Below are positions 4,540-46,469 of a DNA stretch of 64,000 bases, in pieces. The first letter of the stretch is position 1, and the number at the start of each line of letters is the position of its first letter. The translations under genes were made by a program, and so were the position numbers. This stretch comes from Mobula hypostoma (Eukaryota): positions 11,594,001-11,658,000 of the forward strand of contig NC_086100.1 in the NCBI RefSeq assembly GCF_963921235.1. Direction: 5' to 3'. The notes under the pieces are model-generated. The model had not been told where the DNA came from, ran no database searches, and worked only from the letters and a program-made list of their open reading frames with translations.

Positions 4540-7500
4540 GAATGGGACAGTCGAATGATGTGCTCTCTCCCAGGTGCCAAGGTTAGGGACGTCTTGGATC
4601 ACGTCCGCAGCATTTTGGAGGGGGATAGATAGCAGCCAGATGTTTTGGTACATATTGGTGCCAATGACAAAGGAAGGAAAAGCAAAGATGTTTTCAAAAG
4701 AGAAATTAGAGAGCTAGGCAGGAGGCTGCGAATCAGGACCTCCAGGGAGATAATTTCTGGATTGCAGCTTGCGCCCCGTGCCTGTGAAGGTAGAAACAGG
4801 ATGAAATGGCAGATTAATCCGTGGCTGAGGAGCTGGTGCAGGGTGCATGGTTCAGGTTCTTGGATCATTGCATCTCTTCTGGGGGAGGTATGCCCTGTAC
4901 AAAAGTGACTGTTTGCACCCGAACTTGAAGGTACCAGTACTCTAGCGGGCAGATTGATAGAGCTGTCGGGGAGGGTTTAAACTAATTTGGCAGGGGTGTG
5001 GAAACCGAATTGAAGGGACTCAGGATAGGACGGATGGTAATAAAGCAAAGATTGCAGACTGTGAGGTAGGACAGGCAGATGATAGAACAAAATTGCAGCC
5101 AGCAGGATGAGTATCAGTGCATTAGGGATGCAAAATTAAAAATGGTAGTATATACAGTGCTGGAAGTGTTATATCTCAATGCACGGACTATTACAAAAAA
5201 GGTGGATGATCTTGTTGCATTATTACAGATAGTCATGAATGATGCTGTGGCTGTCACTCAAGCGTGGCTGAAAGATGGTTGTAGTTAGAAACTGAAAGTT
5301 AAACATTGCCTCGGAGGGATACGAAGGTAGTCAGGGGGTATGGCTCCGCTGGCAAAGAATGGCATTAAATCAGTGGAAAGATTGCATTAGATTATGAGGA
5401 CACTCAGTCCTCGTTTATTGTCATTTAGAAATGCATGCATTAAAAATGATACAATGTTCCTCCGGAGAGATATCACAAGAAACACCTGGCAAACCAAAAC
5501 TAAAATTGACAAAACCGCATAATTATAACATATAGTTACAACAGTGCAAAGCAATACCGTAATTTGATAAAGAGCAGACCATGGGCACGGTAAAAAAAAA
5601 AATCTCAAAGTTCCGATAGCCTCATCATCTCACGCAGACGGTAGAAGGGAGAAACTCTCCCTGCCATGAACCTCCAAGCGCCGCAAACTTGCCGATGCAG
5701 CACCATTGGAAGCACCCGACCGCAGCGGACTCTGAGTCCGTCCGAAAACTTCGAGCTTCCGACCAGCCCTCCGACATTGAGGACCGAGCACTATCCTCTG
5801 CCGAGCGCTTCGACACTGCCCCGGCAGCCGAACAACAAGCAAAGCCGCGGACTCGGAGCCTCCCCCTCCAGAGATTCTGGATCACACAGCAGTAGCAGCA
5901 GCGAAGCAGGCATTTCAGAAGTTTCACCAGATGTTCCTCCGTGCTCTCACGTCTGTCTTCATGAAATCAGGATTGTGCATGGCACCCTACTTTACAGATA
6001 ACAGACATCACCACCGCAGTGGCCGCTGCGAGCTGCGTCGTGCCACCATCTTCTTCTGCCGCCCATAGATGTGACATAGGATGGGAAGATGTTGAATTCT
6101 TCAGGGTCGAGTTAAGAAACTTCAAGGGGACAAGGATCCATGATGTCAGTTATATAGAGACCTTCCAACAGTAGGTAGAATGTGGACTACCGATTACCGC
6201 GGGAAATAGAAAAGACGTGTCAAAAGGGCAATGTTGTGATACTCATGGGGGATTTCAACATGCAGGTCAGTTGGGAAATTGGGATGGTAATGGACATCAA
6301 GACAATTAGCTTGTTGAATGTCTACGAAATGGTGTTTTTTGAGCAGTTTGTCGTTGATCCCACTAGGGGATCAGCTATACTGATTTGGGTTTTATGTAAT
6401 GAACCGGATTCGGGAGCTAAAGGAAAATAATGTAAAATGGAGGCTATGGGTAACCCCAGGTAATTTATAAAATAAGTACATGATTGGCACAGTGTCGGTT
6501 GCCGAAGGACCTGTGTTTTGCTGTAGTTTTCTATGTTTCTATGTCTAACATTAAGGAGCCAGTGAACACAATATGATTGAGGTAACTTGAAATTTGATAG
6601 GGAGAAAGTAAAGTCTAACGTAGTAGTATTTCAGCAGAGTAAAGGAAATTACTCCACTGAAATTAAAGGTATGAGAGAAGAATTGGAAGGAGATGTTGAC
6701 AATGATGACTGCAGAGCAGTAATGGCATGAGTTTCTGGGAAAAATGAGGAAGATGCAGGATAAATGTAATGCAAAAAAAGAAGTAATGCTGAAATGGCGA
6801 AATAGTATGTCTGTGGCTCACAAGGGAAGTAAAAGCTAATGTAAAAGCAAAAGAGAGGACATACAGAAAAGTATAAATTTGCGGGAAGTTAGAGGATTGG
6901 GGATCTTTTAAAAACCTACAGAGGGCAACTAGAAGAATCATTAGCGGTGAAATGACGAAATATGAAAGAAAGCTAGCAAACAAAGTCAAAGAGAACAGTA
7001 AAGTCTTTTTCAAGTATGTAAAAAAATAAAAGAAAGATGAGCGTGGATATAGGAGTGCTAGAAAATGAGGCCAGAGAAATATTAACAGGGGACAAGGAGA
7101 TGGCAGATGAACTAAATAAGTATTCTGCAACAGTATTCGCTGTGGAAGACACTAGCAGTGCGACAGATGTTGAAGAGTACGGGGGAAGAGAAGTGAGTGC
7201 AGTTACTATTACAAGAAAGAGTTTGCCCAGAAAATTGAAAAGCCTGTGGGTAAGTAATTCACTCGGACCAGATGAAGTACGCCCTAGGATTCTGAAAGAG
7301 GTAGCGGTAGAAATTGTGGAGGCATTGGTAGCAACTTTTCAAGAATCATTGTCTTCTGGCATGGTACTAGAGGTTGGAAAATTCCAGATGTCACTCCCCA
7401 CTCTAAGAAAGGAGGATGGCAGTCGAAGGGAAATTATAGACCAGTGAGCCTGACCTCACTCGTTGGGAAGATGTTGGAGTCAATTGTTAAGTATAAGGTT

Positions 7501-38170: not shown

Positions 38171-40062
38171 ACGATAGAGAAACATAGAAACACAGAAATC
38201 CTACAGCACAATACAGGCCTTTCGGGCCACAAAGCTGTGCCGAATATGTCCTTACCTGAGAAATTACCTAGGGCTCCCCATAGCCCTTTATTATTCTAAG
38301 CTCCATATACCTGTCCAGGAGTTTCATAAAAGCCTCTATCGTATCCGCTTCCACCACTGTCGCCGGCAGCCCGTTCCAGGCACTCACCACTGTCCCTGAG
38401 ATCTTCTCTGTATCTATTTCCAAGCATCTTAAACTATGCTCTCTCGTGCTAGCCATTTCAGCCTTGGGAAAAAAACCTCTGACGTTCGACAGGATCGATG
38501 CGTCTCATCATCTTCTACACCTTCACTAGGTCGCATCTGATCCACAGTCGCTGCAAGGAAAAATGGCCGAGTTCACTCAACCTAATCTCATAAAGCATAC
38601 ACCCCAATACAGGCAACATCATGATAAATATCCTCTGCACCTTTTCTATGGTGTCCATATCCTTCCGGTAGTGAAGCTACCAGAACTGAGCACAGTGGTC
38701 CAAGTGGGATCTGACCAGGGTCCTATAGCTGCAACATTACCTCTGGGCTCCTAAATTCAATACCACGGTGTTGCATCCTATCGGAGTCCCACTGTAACCT
38801 CTGACAGCCGTCCATACTATCCACAACACCTTTAACCTTTGTGTCCATCAGAAAATTTACTAACCTATCCTCCTATTTCCTCATCCAGTTCATTTATAAA
38901 AATGAGAAAGAGGAGGGGTCCCAGAACAGATCCCTGAGGCACACCACTGGTGACCGACATCCACGCAGAATATGACCCGTCTCCAAACACTCTTTGCTTT
39001 CCCTGAGCAAGCCAGTTCTGGATCCACAAAGAAATTTCCTCGTGGATCCCATGCCTCCTTCCTTTCGCAAAAAGCCTTGAATGGTGTACCTTATCACATG
39101 CCTTGCTGAAATCCATATAAACTATATCTACTGCTCTACCATCATCAATGTGATCAGTTACACCCTCAATCAGGCTCGTAAGGCACGACTTTTCTTCCGC
39201 AAAGCCATGCTGACCATTCCTAATCATATTATGCCTCTCCAAATTATAATAAATCTTGCCTCTCAGGATCTTCTCCATCAGCTTACCAACCACTGAAGTA
39301 AGACTCACTTGTCTATAACTTTCTGGGCTATCTCTGCTCCCTTTCTTGAATAATGGAATACACCCGCAACCCTCCAATCCTCTGGAACCTCTCTCGTCCC
39401 CATTAATGATGCAAAGATCATCGCCAGACGCTCAGCAATCTCGTCCCTCGCTTCCCACATTGGTCTGGGGTACATTTCCTCCAGTCTCGGTGATTTATCC
39501 AACTTTATGGCTTCCAAAAGCTCCTGTACATCCTCTTTCTTAATCTTCACATTCTCAAGCTTTTCAGTCTGCTGTAAGTCATCCGTACAATCGCCAACAT
39601 TGGTTTCCATCGTGAATACTGAAGCAAAGTACTCATTTAACTACCGTTGTTATCTCCACGGGTTTCATACACACTTTTCCACTTTCAACCTTGATTGGTC
39701 CAATTCTTTCACACCTTATCCTCTTACTGTCAGCATACTTGTAGAATGCCTTGGGATTTTCCTTAATCCTGTCCGCCAAGGCCTTCTTATGGCCCCTTCT
39801 GGCTCTCCTAATTTTTTATTCAGCTCCTTCCTGCTAGCCTTATAATCTTCTACATTTCTATCATTACATAGCTTTTTGAACCTTTCTTAAGCTCTTATAT
39901 TCTTCTTGACTAGATTTACAACAGCCTTTGTACACGACGGTTCCTTTACACTATCATCCTTTACATAGAAACATAGAAACATAGAAAATAGGTGCAGGAG
40001 TAGGCCATTCGGCCCTTCGAGCCTGCACCGCCATTTATTATGATCATGGCTGATCATCCAAC

Positions 40063-43062
40063 TCAGAACCCAGCCTTCCCTCCATACCCCGTGACCCCTG
40101 TAGCCACAAGGGCCATATCTAACTTCCTTTTAAACATAGCTAATGAACTGGCCTCAACAGTTTGCTGTGGCAGAGAATTCCACAGATTCACCACTCTCTG
40201 TGTGAAGAAGTTTTTCCTAACCTCGGTCCTAAAAGGCTTCCCCTCTATCCTCAAACTGTGACCCCTCGTTCTAGACCTCCCCAACATCGGGAACAATCTT
40301 CCCGCATCTAGCCTGTCCAATCCCTTTAGGATCTTATACGTTTCAATCAGATCCCCCCTCAATCTTCTAAATTCCAACGAGTACAAGCCCAGTTCATCCA
40401 GTCTTTCTTCATATGAAAGACCTGCCATCCCAGGAATCAATCTGGTGAACCTTCTTTGTACTCCCTCTATGGCAAGGATGTCTTTCCTCAGATTAGGGGA
40501 CCAAAACTGCACACAATACTCCAGGTGTGGTCTCACCAAGGCCTTGTACAACTGCAGTAGTACCTCCCTGCTCCTGTACTCGAATCCTCTCGCTATAAAT
40601 GCCAGCATACCGTTCGCCTTTTTCACCGCCTGCTGTACCTGCATGCCCACTTTCAATGACTGGTGTATAATGACACCCAGGTCTCGTTGCACCTCCCCTT
40701 TTCCTAATCGGCCACCATTCAGATAATAATCTGTTTTCCTATTTTTGCCACCAAAGTGGATAACTTCACATTTATCCACATTAAATTGCATCTGCCATGA
40801 GTTTGCCCACTCACCCAACCTATCCAAGTCACCCTGCATCCTCTTAGCATCCTCCTCACTGCTAACACTGCCACCCAGCTTCGTGTCATCCGCAAACTTG
40901 GAGATGCTGCATTTAATTCCCTCATCCAAGTCATTAATATATATTGTAAACAACTGGGGTCCCAGCACTGAGCCTTGCGGTACCCCACTAGTCACCGCCT
41001 GCCATTCTGAAAAGGTCCCGTTTATTCCCACTCTTTGCTTCCTGTCTGCTAACCAATTCTCCACCCACACCAATACCTTACCCCCAATACCATGTGCTTT
41101 AAGTTTGCACACTAATCTCCTGTGTGGGACCTTGTCAAAAGCCTTTTGAAAATCCAAATATACCACATCCACTGGTTCTCCCCTATCCACTCTACTAGTT
41201 ACATCCTCAAAAAATTCTATGAGATTCGTCAGACATGATTTTCCTTTCACAAATCCATGCTGACTTTGTCCGATCATTTCACCGCTTTCCAAATGTGCTG
41301 TTATCACATCCTTGATAACTGACTCCAGCAGTTTCCCCACCACCGACGTTAGGCTAACCGGCCTATAATTCCCCGGTTTCTCTCTCCCTCCTTTTTTAAA
41401 AAGTGGGGTTACATTAGCCACCCTCCAATCCTCAGGAACTAGTCCAGAATCTAACGAGTTTTGAAAAATTATCACTAATGCATCCACTATTTCTTGGGCC
41501 ACTTCCTTAAGCACTCTGGGATGCAGACCATCTGGCCCTGGGGATTTATCTGCCTTCAATCCCTTCAATTTACCTAACACCACTTCCCTACTAACATGTA
41601 TTTCGCTCAGTTCCTCCATCTCACTGGACCCTCTGTCCCTTACTATTTCTGGAAGATTATTTATGTCCTCCTTAGTGAAGACAGAACCAAAGTAATTATT
41701 CAATTGGTCTGCCATGTCCTTGCTCCCCATAATCAATTCACCCGTTTCTGTTTGCAGGGGACCTACATTTGTCTTTATCAGTCTTTTCCTTTTTACATAT
41801 CTATGAAAGCTTTTACAGTCCGTTTTTATGTTCTCTGCCAGTTTTCTCTCATAATCTTTTTTCCCCTTCCTAATTAAGCCCTTTGTCCTCCTCTGCTGAA
41901 CTCTGAATTTCTCCCAGTCCTCAGGTGAGCCACTTTCTCTGGCTAATTTGTATGCTACTTCTTTGGAATTGATACTATCCCTAATTTCTCTTGTCAGCCA
42001 CGGGTGCACTACCTTCCTTGATTTATTCTTTTGCCAAACTGGGATGAACAATTGTTGTAGTTCATCCATGCAACCTTTAAATGCCTGCCATTGCATATCC
42101 ACCGTCAATCCTTGAAGTGTCATTTGCCAGTCTATCTTAGCTAATTCACGTCTCATACCTTCAAAGTTACCCCTCTTTAAGTTCAGAACCTTTGTTTCTG
42201 AATTAACTACGTCACTCTCCATGTTAATGAAGAATTCCACCATATTATGGTCACTCTTACCCAAGGGGCCTCTCACGACAAGATCGCTAATTAACCCTTC
42301 CTCATTGCTCAAAACCCAGTCCAGAATAGCCTGCTCTCTAGTCGGTTCCTCGACATGTTGGTTCAAAAAACCATCCCGCATACATTCCAAGAAATCCTCT
42401 TCCTCAGCACCTTTACCAATTTGGTTCATCCAGTCTACATGTAGATTGAAGTCACACATTATAACTGCTGTTCCTTTATTGCACACATTTCTAATTTCCT
42501 GTTTAATACCATCTCCGACCTCACTACTACTGTTAGGTGGCCTGTACACAACTCCCACCAGCGTCTTCTGCCCCTTAGTGTTACGCAGCTCTACCCATAT
42601 CGATTCCACATCTTCCCGGCTTATGTCCTTCCTTTCTATTGCGTTAATCTCTTTTTTAACCAGCAACGCCACCCCACCTCCCCTTCCTTCGTGTCTATCC
42701 CTCCTGAATATTGAATATCCCTGAACGTTGAGCTCCCATCCCTGGTCACCCTGGAGCCATGTCTCTGTGATCCCAACTATATCATAATCATTAATAACAA
42801 TCTGCACTTTCAATTCATCCACCTTATTACGAATGCTCCTTGCATTGACACATAAAGCCTTCAGGCGCTCTTTTACAACTCTCTTAGCCCTTTTTAATGC
42901 TTGCCCTGGATTTGTCGGCCTGCCACTTTTACTTTTCCCCTTTGTACTTTTTGCTTCTACGCTCACTTTACACCCCTCTGTCTCTCTGCACTGGTTCCCA
43001 TCCCTCTGTTGTGAACTAACCTCCTCACACCTAGCCGCTTTAATTTGATTCCCACCCCCCAA
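40063..43062 (-). CDS. CR1 ORF2: APE endonuclease plus reverse transcriptase
   Basis: NARS, ITETW, YRPP, SDH endonuclease motifs; [31 protein letters not shown] motifs; 999 codons with no stop; frame also open upstream through 43077. Confidence 0.95.
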   Translation of the reverse strand: MGGGNQIKAARCEEVSSQQRDGNQCRETEGCKVSVEAKSTKGKSKSGRPTNPGQALKRAKRVVKERLKALCVNARSIRNKVDELKVQIVINDYDIVGITETWLQGDQGWELNVQGYSIFRRDRHEGRGGGVALLVKKEINAIERKDISREDVESIWVELRNTKGQKTLVGVVYRPPNSSSEVGDGIKQEIRNVCNKGTAVIMCDFNLHVDWMNQIGKGAEEEDFLECMRDGFLNQHVEEPTREQAILDWVLSNEEGLISDLVVRGPLGKSDHNMVEFFINMESDVVNSETKVLNLKRGNFEGMRRELAKIDWQMTLQGLTVDMQWQAFKGCMDELQQLFIPVWQKNKSRKVVHPWLTREIRDSINSKEVAYKLARESGSPEDWEKFRVQQRRTKGLIRKGKKDYERKLAENIKTDCKSFHRYVKRKRLIKTNVGPLQTETGELIMGSKDMADQLNNYFGSVFTKEDINNLPEIVRDRGSSEMEELSEIHVSREVVLGKLKGLKADKSPGPDGLHPRVLKEVAQEIVDALVIIFQNSLDSGLVPEDWRVANVTPLFKKGGREKPGNYRPVSLTSVVGKLLESVIKDVITAHLESGEMIGQSQHGFVKGKSCLTNLIEFFEDVTSRVDRGEPVDVVYLDFQKAFDKVPHRRLVCKLKAHGIGGKVLVWVENWLADRKQRVGINGTFSEWQAVTSGVPQGSVLGPQLFTIYINDLDEGIKCSISKFADDTKLGGSVSSEEDAKRMQGDLDRLGEWANSWQMQFNVDKCEVIHFGGKNRKTDYYLNGGRLGKGEVQRDLGVIIHQSLKVGMQVQQAVKKANGMLAFIARGFEYRSREVLLQLYKALVRPHLEYCVQFWSPNLRKDILAIEGVQRRFTRLIPGMAGLSYEERLDELGLYSLEFRRLRGDLIETYKILKGLDRLDAGRLFPMLGRSRTRGHSLRIEGKPFRTEVRKNFFTQRVVNLWNSLPQQTVEASSLAMFKRKLDMALVATGVTGYGGKAGF

Positions 43063-43067
43063 CCATT

Positions 43068-44003
43068 CTAGTTTAAAGTCACCTCAGTAGCCCCCGCTAA
43101 TCTCCCTGCCAGGATATTGGTCCCCCTAGGATTTAAGTGTAACCCGTCCTTTTTGTACAGGTCACACCTACGCCAAAAGAGGTCCCAATGATCCAAAAAC
43201 TTGAATCCCTGCCCCCTGCTCCAATCCCTCAGCCACGCATTTATCCTCCACCTCATCGCATTCCTACTCTCACTGTCGCGTGGCACAGGCAGTAATCCCG
43301 AGATTACTACCTTTGCGGTCCTTTTTCTCAACTCCCTTCCTAGCTCCCTATATTCTTCTTTCAGGACCTCATCCCTTTTCCTACCTATGTCATTGGTACC
43401 TATATGTACCAGGACCTCTGGCTCTTCACCCTCCCACTTCAGGATATCTTGGACACGATCAGAAATATCCCGGACCCTGGCACCAGGGAGGCAAACTACC
43501 ATCCGAGTCTCTGGACTGCGTCCACAGAATCGCCTATCTGACCCCCTTACTATCGAGTCCCCTATCACAACTGCCCTCCTCTTCCTTGCCCTACCCTTCT
43601 GAGCTACAGGGCCAGACTCTGTGCCGGAGGCAGGGCCACTGTCGCTTCCCCCGGGTAAGCTGTCCCCCCCAACAGTACTCAAACAGGAGTACCTGTTGTT
43701 AAGGGGCACAGCCGCCGGGGTACTCCTCATCACCTGCCTTTTCCCCTTCCCCCTCCTAACCGTGACCCACTTGTCTGCCTCCCGTGGCCCCGGCGTGACC
43801 ACCTGCCTTCCACTCCTCTCTATCACCTCCTCGCTCTCCCTGACCAGACGAAGGTCATCGAGCTGCAGCTCCAGTTCCGTAACGCGGTCCCTTAGGAGCT
43901 GCATCTCGATGCACTTGGCGCAGATGTAGACGTCCGGGAGGCTTGGAGACTCCAGGGCCTCCCACATCCGACACCGAGAACAGCAAACTGCCCTCACAGT
44001 CAT
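43068..44003 (-). CDS. CR1 ORF1: zinc finger/leucine zipper plus SGNH esterase
   Basis: ATG at 44003; CSRC..CAKC, LRDRVTELELQLDDL, GDS, GTND, DGLH; 311 aa. Confidence 0.93.
   Translation of the reverse strand: MTVRAVCCSRCRMWEALESPSLPDVYICAKCIEMQLLRDRVTELELQLDDLRLVRESEEVIERSGRQVVTPGPREADKWVTVRRGKGKRQVMRSTPAAVPLNNRYSCLSTVGGDSLPGGSDSGPASGTESGPVAQKGRARKRRAVVIGDSIVRGSDRRFCGRSPETRMVVCLPGARVRDISDRVQDILKWEGEEPEVLVHIGTNDIGRKRDEVLKEEYRELGRELRKRTAKVVISGLLPVPRDSESRNAMRWRINAWLRDWSRGQGFKFLDHWDLFWRRCDLYKKDGLHLNPRGTNILAGRLAGATEVTLN
43071..43077 (-). promoter_or_regulatory. Candidate -1 ribosomal frameshift slippery site U_UUA_AAC
   Basis: ORF1 ends ACT TTA AAC TAG; the -1 frame TTT AAA CTA GAA TGG TTG is ORF2. 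Confidence 0.7.
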
Positions 44004-46469
44004 AATGCCCCTCTCCTCAAATAGCAACAGAAAATGAATGTTACCTGTCTCACTGGAACGTATCTTCGCAGAACTGCACGCAAATATCCCCTGAACATTT
44101 GTCACATTTCTTCCGTAAGTTTTCCTGAGAACAGGTTTTTCCCATTTATGCTTCCGAGTTCCTGCCTGATAGCCTCATATTTCCACTTACTCCCCAAAGC
44201 TATGATAAACGAATAAAATTCTGATCGCCATATTCAAATTGCTGTCCCACTGTGAGATCCCACAGCAGACCAATACCAGATCAGGAACAGCTTCTCCTCT
44301 TGTAGACTAATCTACATACTATGTGAAGAAACCTTCTGGAACACACCAAACAGGCTTCAACGCATCTAAACCCCTCGCTCTCGGAAATGACAATCAATAT
44401 TTGGGAAATTTAACTCTCCTACCTCGACAACCCTGTCATTATTACATCTTTCCAGAATCTGTCTCCCTATCTGCTGCTCAATGTCTTCCCCTTTTCTGCA
44501 ACCGTGAATCTATCTCTGATTAACAGTGCCACACTCCCACCTCTTTTGCCTCCTTCCATGTTCTTTCTGAAACATCTAAAGCCTGGCACCCGAAGTTACC
44601 ATTCCTGCCTCTGAGGCAACCAAGTCTCTGTAATAGCCAGAACATTATACCTCCGAGTCCTGATCCACGCTGTAATCTCATCTGCTTTGTTCATAATACT
44701 CCTTCCCTTAAAATAGACATGTCTCAAACCATCGGTGTGAGCGCGACCCTTCTCTATCACCTGCCTATCCTCCCTCTTGGACTGTCTCTAAGCTTTCTCT
44801 ATTTGTGTGCTAACCGCCTCTTCCTCCGTCTGTTCTGTTTGTTTCCCACCCCGCAGCAATCCTTGTTTAAATTCTTCCCCGTAGCCTTAGCAAACCTCCC
44901 CGCCAGGATATTTATCACCCTGGGATTCAAGTGCAACCCGTCCTTTTTGAACAGGTCACTCCTGCCCCCAAATAGGTCGCAATGATCCAGAAAACTGAAA
45001 ACGCTGCCCCCTGCTCCAGTCCCTCAGCCACGCATTTATCCTATACTTCACTCTATTCCTATACTCACTGTCGGGTGGCACAAGTTTTAAACCAGAGATG
45101 ACTACTTCTGTGGTCCTGCTTCTCAACTTCCTTCCTAACTCCCTGTAGACCTCCTTCAGGACCTCTTCCCTTTTCCTGGCTATGTCGTTGGTACTAATAT
45201 GTACCACGGCCTCTGGCTGTTCTCCTTCCCACTTCAGTATATCTCGGACGCCATCAGAAACATTCCAGACCCTGGCACCAGTGAGGTAAACTACCATCCG
45301 TGCTTCCATCTGATGTCCACTGAAATGCCTCTCTGATCCGCTAACGATAGAGTTCCCCATTACTGCTGCCACCCTCTTCCTTTCCCTACACTTGTGAGTC
45401 ACAGGGCCAGACTCCGTGTCAGTTGCACAGCCACTGTTGCTTCCTCCGGGTAGGCCGCTGCCCCCAATAGTACTCAGGCAAGAGTACTTATTGTCAAAGG
45501 GTACAGCCAGTGTAGTTCTCTCTTGCCTATGATTACTGCCCTTCTGTTTCATGAATGTTATCCACTTGTCTCTCTTCTCAGGCCCCGTTGCGGCTACCTG
45601 ACTATAGCTCTTCTCCGTCACCTCCTCACTCTCTCTGACCAGACGAAGGTCATCGAGCCTGATCTCCAGTTCCCTAACATTGTCCCTAAGGAGCTGCAGC
45701 TCGACGCACCTGGCGCAGATGTTTCCGCCCGGGAGGCTGGGAGTCTCCTGGACCTCCCACATCTGACACCGATCACAGATCATCTGCCTCATACACATTC
45801 TTCCTGTCGGTATTCTACAGATTCAACCTACCTCGCCTCGTCCCGTTATCGCCGAAGCCCTGTTAAGCCAAAACCTTCCTACTCTGTCTCCCTCTACTCC
45901 GTCGCCCACTCCTCCAATACCAGGTCTATTGAATCTGTCTTCTTTTAAACTCTTCTCGCTGTTCTCACTAGCCTAATTGTGCTTGCGCAGTCGTGCCCCG
46001 ATAAAACAGCTGAAGAAATAAATCACATTATACGTATAAAATGTTTAGCCACAAAGGGGAGATTTTGCGAAAACAACTACTTGGCGAGAGTGGAGAAAGA
46101 GGGACGCTTTGTCTCACAACAGAGGGCATGAATTCTGGAGTTCCAAATCATGAATAGTTTGCCCGAAATAAATTAATCTGGAGAATTAAATATCCACAGC
46201 TCAAATTATTCGCATGGCACTCAGACCATATAAGAAAAGAAGTCTGTAAACCACGTTTAATTCTATGAGCCTGGGAAGTTGATTGCCAGTACAGGGTGCC
46301 GACTGTTGTATCTTGTTGACGGTCAGGATGGAGAAAGGCTATAGGCTGGTACTGCAGAACACGCTTATGGCCATTCCTTTCAACAACCGGTATACTGCTG
46401 TTGATTCTGAGGGTGTTCGGATGGTGCGGCACAGGAAAACCAGGTAGCTTCTGACACTGAGCCTTCGAT

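Follow-up and report, generated by a model that had tools for sequence, protein, structure and literature searches.

The two ORFs of the CR1 LINE on the minus strand of the window (the whole 64,000-nt stretch of DNA that was analysed) are very probably joined by a programmed -1 ribosomal frameshift, giving a predicted fusion protein of 1313 aa. A slippery heptamer and an adjacent stop are conserved at the end of ORF1 in related elements from rays to birds, and ORF2 lies in the -1 frame without a usable start, so that the copying enzyme is likely to be made by -1 slippage. The majority of ribosomes would terminate after ORF1 and release a 35-kDa product, while a smaller fraction would shift into the -1 frame on U_UUA_AAC, with the Leu and Asn tRNAs probably moving in tandem, and continue into a predicted 149-kDa esterase-endonuclease-reverse transcriptase; the ORF2:ORF1 ratio is expected to be low and fixed. 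The features of the copy are listed in Table 1.

Table 1. Features of the CR1 copy and of its ORF1-ORF2 junction (positions in the window).
Feature	Position	Strand	Basis or remark
5' UTR remnant	44004..44041	-	copy 5'-truncated ~38 nt before ORF1 start
ORF1, 311 aa, ends Leu-Asn-stop	43068..44003	-	Cys motif N-terminal and coiled-coil region, then SGNH esterase
Slippery heptamer U_UUA_AAC	43071..43077	-	phase and conservation
ORF1 stop abutting heptamer	43068..43070	-	TAG here; TAA or TGA elsewhere
Conserved G motif, candidate unstructured stimulator	43051..43060	-	conservation; function inferred
Segment between heptamer and endonuclease motif NARS	42847..43071	-	spacer analysis
ORF2, APE-type endonuclease and reverse transcriptase	40063..43083	-	frame analysis; PF03372, PF14529, PF00078
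3' UTR and 8-base tandem tail	39963..40062	-	tail of short tandem repeats

The last codons of ORF1 are ACT TTA AAC TAG, so that the heptamer stands in X_XXY_YYZ phase with the stop immediately 3' of it. ORF2 is in the -1 frame relative to ORF1, is open through the site as far as its stop at 40065-40063 and, in this family, has no start of its own: 204 codons without AUG follow the shift, and the earliest in-frame AUG (42459, residue 205 after the shift) lies inside the endonuclease with the motifs NARS (42846), ITETW (42771) and YRPP (42549) all upstream; the family lacks a usable AUG. A further AUG, at 43066, belongs to the third frame and opens just eight codons. A preliminary description of the locus had reported the heptamer, the frames and both AUGs and had put the fusion at about 1313 aa; its coordinates all hold, and the predicted length is 311 + 1002 aa. 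The heptamer by itself is frequent, with 20 matches over both strands of the window.

The element is a canonical vertebrate CR1 LINE, as assigned by its ORF1 esterase, ORF2 domains and tail rather than by a reverse transcriptase tree; canonical vertebrate CR1s encode an SGNH esterase in ORF1 or cluster with those encoding it (PMC13343379). The esterase matches Pfam PF13472 (E 2.9e-16), and a profile built from ORF1 relatives matches the ORF1 esterase of PDB 4C1B (E 2.4e-44). In ORF2 the endonuclease precedes the reverse transcriptase; the nearest matches to ORF2 are gene models from ray, frog and bird, and a single-sequence search with the endonuclease region gave no PDB match. Other CR1 traits are the short-tandem-repeat 3' tail, the lack of LTRs and the presence of 5'-truncated copies. 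The family is young: at least 40 copies are identical (100%) across 501 nt of the junction and the -1 frame is stop-free over its first 592 codons in 29 of 30 retrieved copies, so this is not a decayed copy.

From this genome and from amniote-type contigs, 128 distinct CR1 junctions were collected, with the ORF1 protein ending 12 residues upstream as anchor. The exact heptamer occurs in 107 of them, at most 16 nt from its predicted place (chance rate 0.3%), and in 100 of these 107 the stop follows directly; the identity of the stop varies among lineages (TAG, TAA, TGA) and the heptamer is invariant. In all 16 lineage representatives, which were chosen from exact-heptamer copies and are mutually related, Leu is encoded by TTA and Asn by AAC (11% of Leu and 37% of Asn codons, respectively, in these ORF1s), and the codon before Leu-Asn ends in T under several different amino acids. 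A single codon is kept by none of the 16 control columns with four- or six-fold degeneracy and by one of the 9 with two- or three-fold degeneracy, and three of the four invariant third positions among 125 columns belong to the heptamer. Judged by these codon choices, the heptamer is conserved at nucleotide level across deep lineages, beyond protein needs, and fixed at synonymous positions. It is missing in exact form from 21 junctions, 13 of them from one old decayed family in which four of the 13 carry an identical A-to-G change. In 13 of 21 representatives the -1 frame closes before the heptamer, at a distance of 1-5 codons, and ORF2 cannot begin earlier in those lineages.

The position of ORF2 is consistent with the same reading. 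The start of the endonuclease was located in 106 distinct copies, and 80 of these have the domain in the -1 frame; the 26 with it in another frame are read as decay. The spacer from heptamer to endonuclease measures 38, 49, 50, 52, 67, 68, 72, 77, 86, 89 or 110 codons, depending on the family, within-family differences are multiples of three, and the -1 phase is constant. The spacer is typically AUG-free in the families with 49, 50, 67 and 77/86 codons. The programmed frameshift first suggested for this copy is thus supported by synonymous fixation of the heptamer, by a constant -1 phase despite spacer variation, by several families without a usable AUG, and by closure of the -1 frame just upstream.

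Termination-reinitiation of the SART1/L1 type, with a restart at a nearby -1-frame AUG or, where there is none, at a non-AUG codon, and with a separate ORF2 protein, would make the heptamer and the G motif reinitiation signals. It has been proposed for the two LINEs that were tested (PMC2881922), it would suit a stop that so regularly adjoins the heptamer, and it is kept as a rival because an in-frame AUG stands beside the stop in 7 of 20 lineages, at codon 4 or 5 (at the stop or 2 nt after it), in two of the seven as a UAAUG stop-start. In another six of the 20, codon 5 is TTG or ACG, but it is TGG, TCG, GAC or GAA in other lineages, and some of the lineages with the AUG are closely related. 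In the present family an in-frame AUG overlapping or adjoining the ORF1 stop, as in SART1, is absent. Reinitiation is improbable overall, since it predicts neither an exact in-phase X_XXY_YYZ nor the apparent exchange of slippery heptamers in distant relatives.

That exchange is suggested by the protein ends of ORF1. In 80 ORF1 homologues the catalytic motif is followed by a short tail only, and 73 of them terminate in Leu-Asn (LN); those with a named source belong to rays, sharks, coelacanth, frogs, turtles, squamates and one bird; lineages named as amphibian, turtle or squamate, and those ending in GN or KN, are represented by protein ends alone. Whether the residue before LN has to permit a T-ending codon was examined at protein level, with 1 of 30 against 38 of 270 (p = 0.06). 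Among 93 ORF1 tails of a 50%-identity library, retrieved with a query profile that itself ends in LN, 48 end in LN, 10 in GN (after Gln or Ser) and three in KN (after Ser or Ala), while 32 end in none of these; KN occurs at one internal position in seven further tails. With codons inferred from protein, these ends fit U_UUA_AAC, G_GGA_AAC and A_AAA_AAC, and the slippery pattern is fitted by 103 of 1646 background dipeptides. The three heptamers are among the shiftiest in mammalian ribosomes, according to the part cited of Atkins 2016 (PMC5009743). A poison-frog family has VKL in the -1 frame, which would imply G_UUA_AAC, a weaker fit. Searches for DNA of the amphibian, turtle, squamate-named and GN/KN lineages gave none in viral contigs and two short matches in prokaryote genomes; one weak match came from a search for longer fusions, and a KN-type protein as query had no match in this genome.

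A constraint on the proteins themselves (Leu-Asn ending ORF1, Phe-Lys-Leu opening ORF2), with ORF2 expressed by splicing or by internal non-AUG initiation, is very unlikely. Codons can be fixed where constraints from two reading frames overlap; the tail before LN, however, is between 25 and 39 residues long in distant relatives, so that LN goes with the position of the stop and not with the fold. In stork gene models, which are predictions, exons lying further upstream are joined to ...SFKL in the frame of ORF2. Against this stand the closure of the -1 frame within a few codons before the site in most lineages and a poor acceptor, with only 7-13 pyrimidines in the 25 nt upstream. No joint across the ORF1 stop was seen among those listed (four assemblies of guessed type; three joints lay outside these), which says little either way, and no RNA containing the junction was among the matches listed. 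An extra base added at the T3A3 run by transcription or editing, which would fuse the frames in some RNAs with the same phase and almost the same product, is the least credible route, as the runs are just three bases long, known polymerase slippage uses longer ones (9 A or T in the part cited of PMC5009743), and the contigs listed, all assemblies, show no insertion at the site.

The preferred reading, -1 slippage on the heptamer, leaves the question of a stimulator. The preliminary description had pointed to a G-rich tract at the usual spacer for a stimulator. In this copy the tract does begin after a 6-nt spacer; what lineages share, however, is only G5 at +11..+15 and Gs at +18..+20, so that with the conserved element at +11 and no conserved fold the usual spacer is not the conserved feature. 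G5 is perfect in 80 of the 107 exact junctions and has at least four of five Gs in 101. Most -1 frameshift sites have an RNA structure 5-9 nt downstream, as stated in the part cited of PMC5009743; folding without pseudoknots across 20 lineages showed neither a hairpin nor a G-quadruplex conserved 3' of the site (z -1.44 to +2.29, none below -1.5), and in such folds the junction lacks the downstream structure that marks the structure-stimulated type. A G-quadruplex appears in the lowest-energy fold of only 5 of 20 lineages (45-nt span). Long-range pairing of the G motif with a pyrimidine-rich 3' UTR segment ranked 3-27 of ~170-180 sites and never first in the 9 of 12 elements with the site correctly placed; no covariation was seen, the segment is already paired inside a 3' UTR stem, and such pairing is not supported. 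The position and nucleotide-level conservation of G5 match the type with a linear motif at 11-15 nt, for which trans-factor binding is a candidate only. G5 is a candidate unstructured stimulator that may act unfolded, through a bound protein or the mRNA entry channel of the ribosome.

The working model for LINEs is reinitiation. To our knowledge few unstructured frameshift stimulators are known, and the G5 motif offers a short, testable candidate. If the conserved frameshift is true, the predicted enzyme changes from an ORF2p quoted at roughly 95 kDa for chicken CR1 to the 149-kDa fusion, the puzzling esterase is physically tied to the reverse transcriptase, and the criterion for an intact CR1 changes. 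Retrotransposons of the CR1 group predominate in most vertebrates and account for 22-34% of the genome in sharks and rays (PMC13343379). A bolder reading is tentative and rather doubtful: the CR1 frameshift would predate the jawed-vertebrate split, canonical slippery heptamers would have been swapped in more distant lineages, a G5-bound protein rather than a fold would drive slippage, and the fusion would stay uncleaved. The bound protein might be a host factor that recognises G tracts or the ORF1p of the element itself; if true, a resident vertebrate retroelement would use protein-activated frameshifting and carry its reverse transcriptase in an uncleaved esterase-endonuclease-reverse transcriptase fusion.

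The full-text literature searched describes no CR1 ORF1/ORF2 frameshift and the reviews searched do not address CR1 ORF2 translation; key older papers, which may already suggest it, lie outside that coverage. The earlier contrast between retroviral frameshifting and LINE reinitiation is too sharp, since a -1 frameshift is already stated for the Dictyostelium LINEs TRE5-A and TRE3-A in the part cited of a review (PMC5911963). Like CR1, these are two-ORF APE-type LINEs whose ORF2 is stated to need the shift; unlike CR1, they belong to an amoeba and to another clade, and the cited passage names no slippery site or stimulator. SART1 and L1 share with CR1 a bicistronic LINE RNA, and their ORF2 depends on ORF1 translation (PMC2881922), but they are thought to reinitiate and make a separate ORF2 protein, whereas this CR1 family has no near-stop AUG in the ORF2 frame. 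ZfL2-1 ORF1p (PDB 4C1B) is likewise an SGNH esterase, but in the part cited of PMC3905857 it is treated as a free protein and no signal at the junction is discussed. Retroviral and LTR gag-pol and coronavirus ORF1a/1b have, like CR1, an X_XXY_YYZ heptamer and, as predicted for CR1, more structural protein than polymerase. CR1 differs from them in that neither a conserved stem-loop nor a pseudoknot was found 5-9 nt downstream, that the stop abuts the heptamer, and that Pfam showed no protease domain, so that the predicted fusion may stay intact. With the -2/-1 frameshift in nsp2 of the arterivirus PRRSV, CR1 shares a linear motif at an offset of 11 nt on the 3' side of the shift site; in PRRSV, according to the part cited of PMC5009743, the motif is C-rich and its binders, nsp1beta and PCBP, are known, whereas the CR1 motif is G-rich and its trans factor hypothetical.

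An older CR1 has the young CR1-type LINE of the window inserted in its ORF2, and a duplication of 3-4 bases marks the ends of the insertion; at 44871 the junction of the older element itself retains the heptamer U_UUA_AAC and has lost the stop. The end of ORF1 given in the preliminary description, ACT TTA AAC TAG, is present in the window copy, and ORF2 does lie in the -1 frame with a late first AUG, at 42459, after three endonuclease motifs. The predicted ORF1-ORF2 fusion has 1313 aa (148.8 kDa). Among the matches listed, the nearest named match of ORF1 is a devil-ray gene model (98%), which places the host among cartilaginous fishes.

Features of the young CR1 element and its host element
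Feature	Position	Strand	Remarks
CR1-type LINE	about 44041-39963	minus	5' end missing, break within 5' UTR
ORF1	44003-43068	minus	311 aa, SGNH esterase
ORF2	-1 frame, opening two codons ahead of heptamer	minus	APE endonuclease and reverse transcriptase
Older decayed CR1	45822-44100 and 39960-38860	minus	carries the young element in its ORF2

At least 40 scored matches (1418 candidates) are 100% identical to a 501-nt junction query. In 29 of 30 fetched copies of this family the -1 frame has no stop over 592 codons, and 16 of the 30, one of them the window's own locus, have a whole ORF1. The family is young, and its ORF1/ORF2 arrangement is a working one and no accident of a single copy.

Junctions were gathered from the Mobula hypostoma genome and from metagenome contigs containing CR1 of amniote type (41 loci, the majority ending before the junction), using as anchor an ORF1 protein stopping 12 residues ahead of the stop. 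The heptamer proved conserved well beyond chance (0.3%), being exact in 107 of 128 distinct junctions (171 gathered): 78/81 in younger ray families, 18/31 in one old decayed family, 9/11 in metagenome contigs and 2/5 elsewhere in the window. In 100 of the 107 the heptamer is immediately followed by a stop. Four old-family copies (loci L033, L041, L047 and L051) have an A-to-G change in the heptamer in common, which would mark either a subfamily or a hotspot of mutation. Two copies of more distant CR1 families, at window 59417-59397 (-) and 4976-4996 (+), show this heptamer, the stop and the G run as well, the former with a 72-codon spacer open in the -1 frame.

Twenty-one representatives, one natural copy per lineage, were chosen by hand, every one with an exact heptamer; their ORF1 stop may be TAG, TAA or TGA. 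Sixteen keep an unbroken ORF1 frame (five were dropped), and in every one of these the Leu codon is TTA, the Asn codon AAC and the base ahead of them T. None of 16 control columns with four- or six-fold degeneracy keeps a single codon, so synonymous sites elsewhere are well shuffled among the lineages. No p-value is attached to these counts because the lineages are related. The CR1 junction is a real, deeply conserved recoding-type signal.

The protein records extend this range. The catalytic motif is found in 83 of 120 ORF1 homologues listed, 80 of them with a short tail, and 73 of these 80 end in Leu-Asn, as do 84 of all 120. Named examples come from rays, sharks, coelacanth, frogs, turtles, a snake, lizards and a hummingbird. 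A frog CR1 family, judged from its protein, probably has G_UUA_AAC instead, a heptamer that equine arteritis virus uses. FKL, the -1 frame reading of the heptamer, lies 71-98 residues upstream of the endonuclease start in 22 of 94 ORF2 homologues with a recognisable start (21 stork and one stingray gene models); most remaining models start further downstream, past this position. Some vertebrate-type CR1 proteins (matches P0022, P0128, P0083, P0026 and P0124) stand under bacterial or flatworm names, likely through host contamination, or within host gene models, which have swallowed CR1 sequence.

Distant relatives were sought by a profile search of a 50%-identity library. The best 150 listed include 101 with the catalytic motif and 93 with a tail of 20-45 residues; with a profile that favours LN, these 93 tails gave 48 LN, 10 GN and 3 KN ends, an internal KN at one position in seven, and a few GF or FF, while a substantial minority have no LN/GN/KN-type signal. 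Judged from the protein ends, GN and KN relatives may carry slippery heptamers other than U_UUA_AAC. A residue encoded only by T/C-ending codons stands before LN in 17 cases and before GN/KN in none; a residue encoded only by A/G-ending codons stands before GN/KN in nine cases and before LN in one. In a quick tree, LN, GN, KN and GF/FF ends fall together in one supported group, and LN ends recur in several groups differing in tail length.

The spacer between heptamer and endonuclease varies by family from 38 to 110 codons. In intact copies it has no stop in the -1 frame and 1 to 14, usually at least five, in each other frame; in four ray families it typically lacks an AUG. Of 106 distinct copies where the endonuclease was located, 80 have it in the -1 frame (one of the 80 a spurious motif match), and 26, taken to be decayed and to contain indels, do not. 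Upstream, the -1 frame is closed 1-5 codons before the heptamer in 13/21 representatives. Taken together, the spacer frames and this closure imply, as judged from sequence, that entry of the ribosome into the ORF2 frame has to take place at the heptamer or immediately downstream of it. The L104-L118 family has an ORF1 unlike that of the window family, but its spacer, ORF2 end and 3' UTR are close to those of the window family; ORF1 exchange near the junction is suggested. A 3' UTR stem (L104-L214) differs in sequence between ray families, its arms by eye appearing still complementary.

Entry there would very probably occur by programmed -1 frameshifting, as first proposed. Reinitiation after the ORF1 stop is an improbable substitute, although seven of 20 lineages have an in-frame AUG at codon 4 or 5, two as UAAUG, and six further ones TTG or ACG; in such lineages it could act alone or together with frameshifting. 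The probable frog heptamer and the A-to-G change shared by four old copies likewise weigh against frameshifting. All remaining explanations jointly carry even less weight. UAAUG is the stop-start of SART1, according to a title cited in PMC2881922. The heptamer is followed by UAAUG in L104, L116, L117 and L120 (a ray family) and in L078, where the two signals coincide and offer a natural test case for both mechanisms. Our literature search, set outside the founding CR1 papers and supplements, found no report of a CR1 junction frameshift signal; 'CR1' is absent from the first 300,000 of 449,034 characters of a recoding review (Atkins et al. 2016, PMC5009743), and 'frameshift' and 'translation' from the text of PMC13343379 covered here.

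Counting from the heptamer, +11 to +15 are G in all 20 representatives with sequence, as are +19 in 20, +18 in 18 and +20 in 17. In the ORF2 frame the third base of codon 6 is G whichever of five amino acids it encodes, and codon 7 reads GGG in 20/20, while in an endonuclease control (seven representatives) one of 26 columns with four- or six-fold degeneracy keeps a single codon. The conserved 3' element is, on this codon evidence, a nucleotide motif. No fold common to the representatives was found for this tract, nor any convincing long-range pairing partner. In the portion of the review by Atkins et al. (2016, PMC5009743) covered here, structural stimulators usually follow a 5-9 nt spacer; arterivirus and cardiovirus shifts have 11-14 nt, a minority of stimulators lie 12-15 nt downstream and work with trans factors, and for unstructured stimulators an action within the entry channel is proposed. 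The CR1 G motif matches the arterivirus/cardiovirus, trans-factor and unstructured stimulators by position only.
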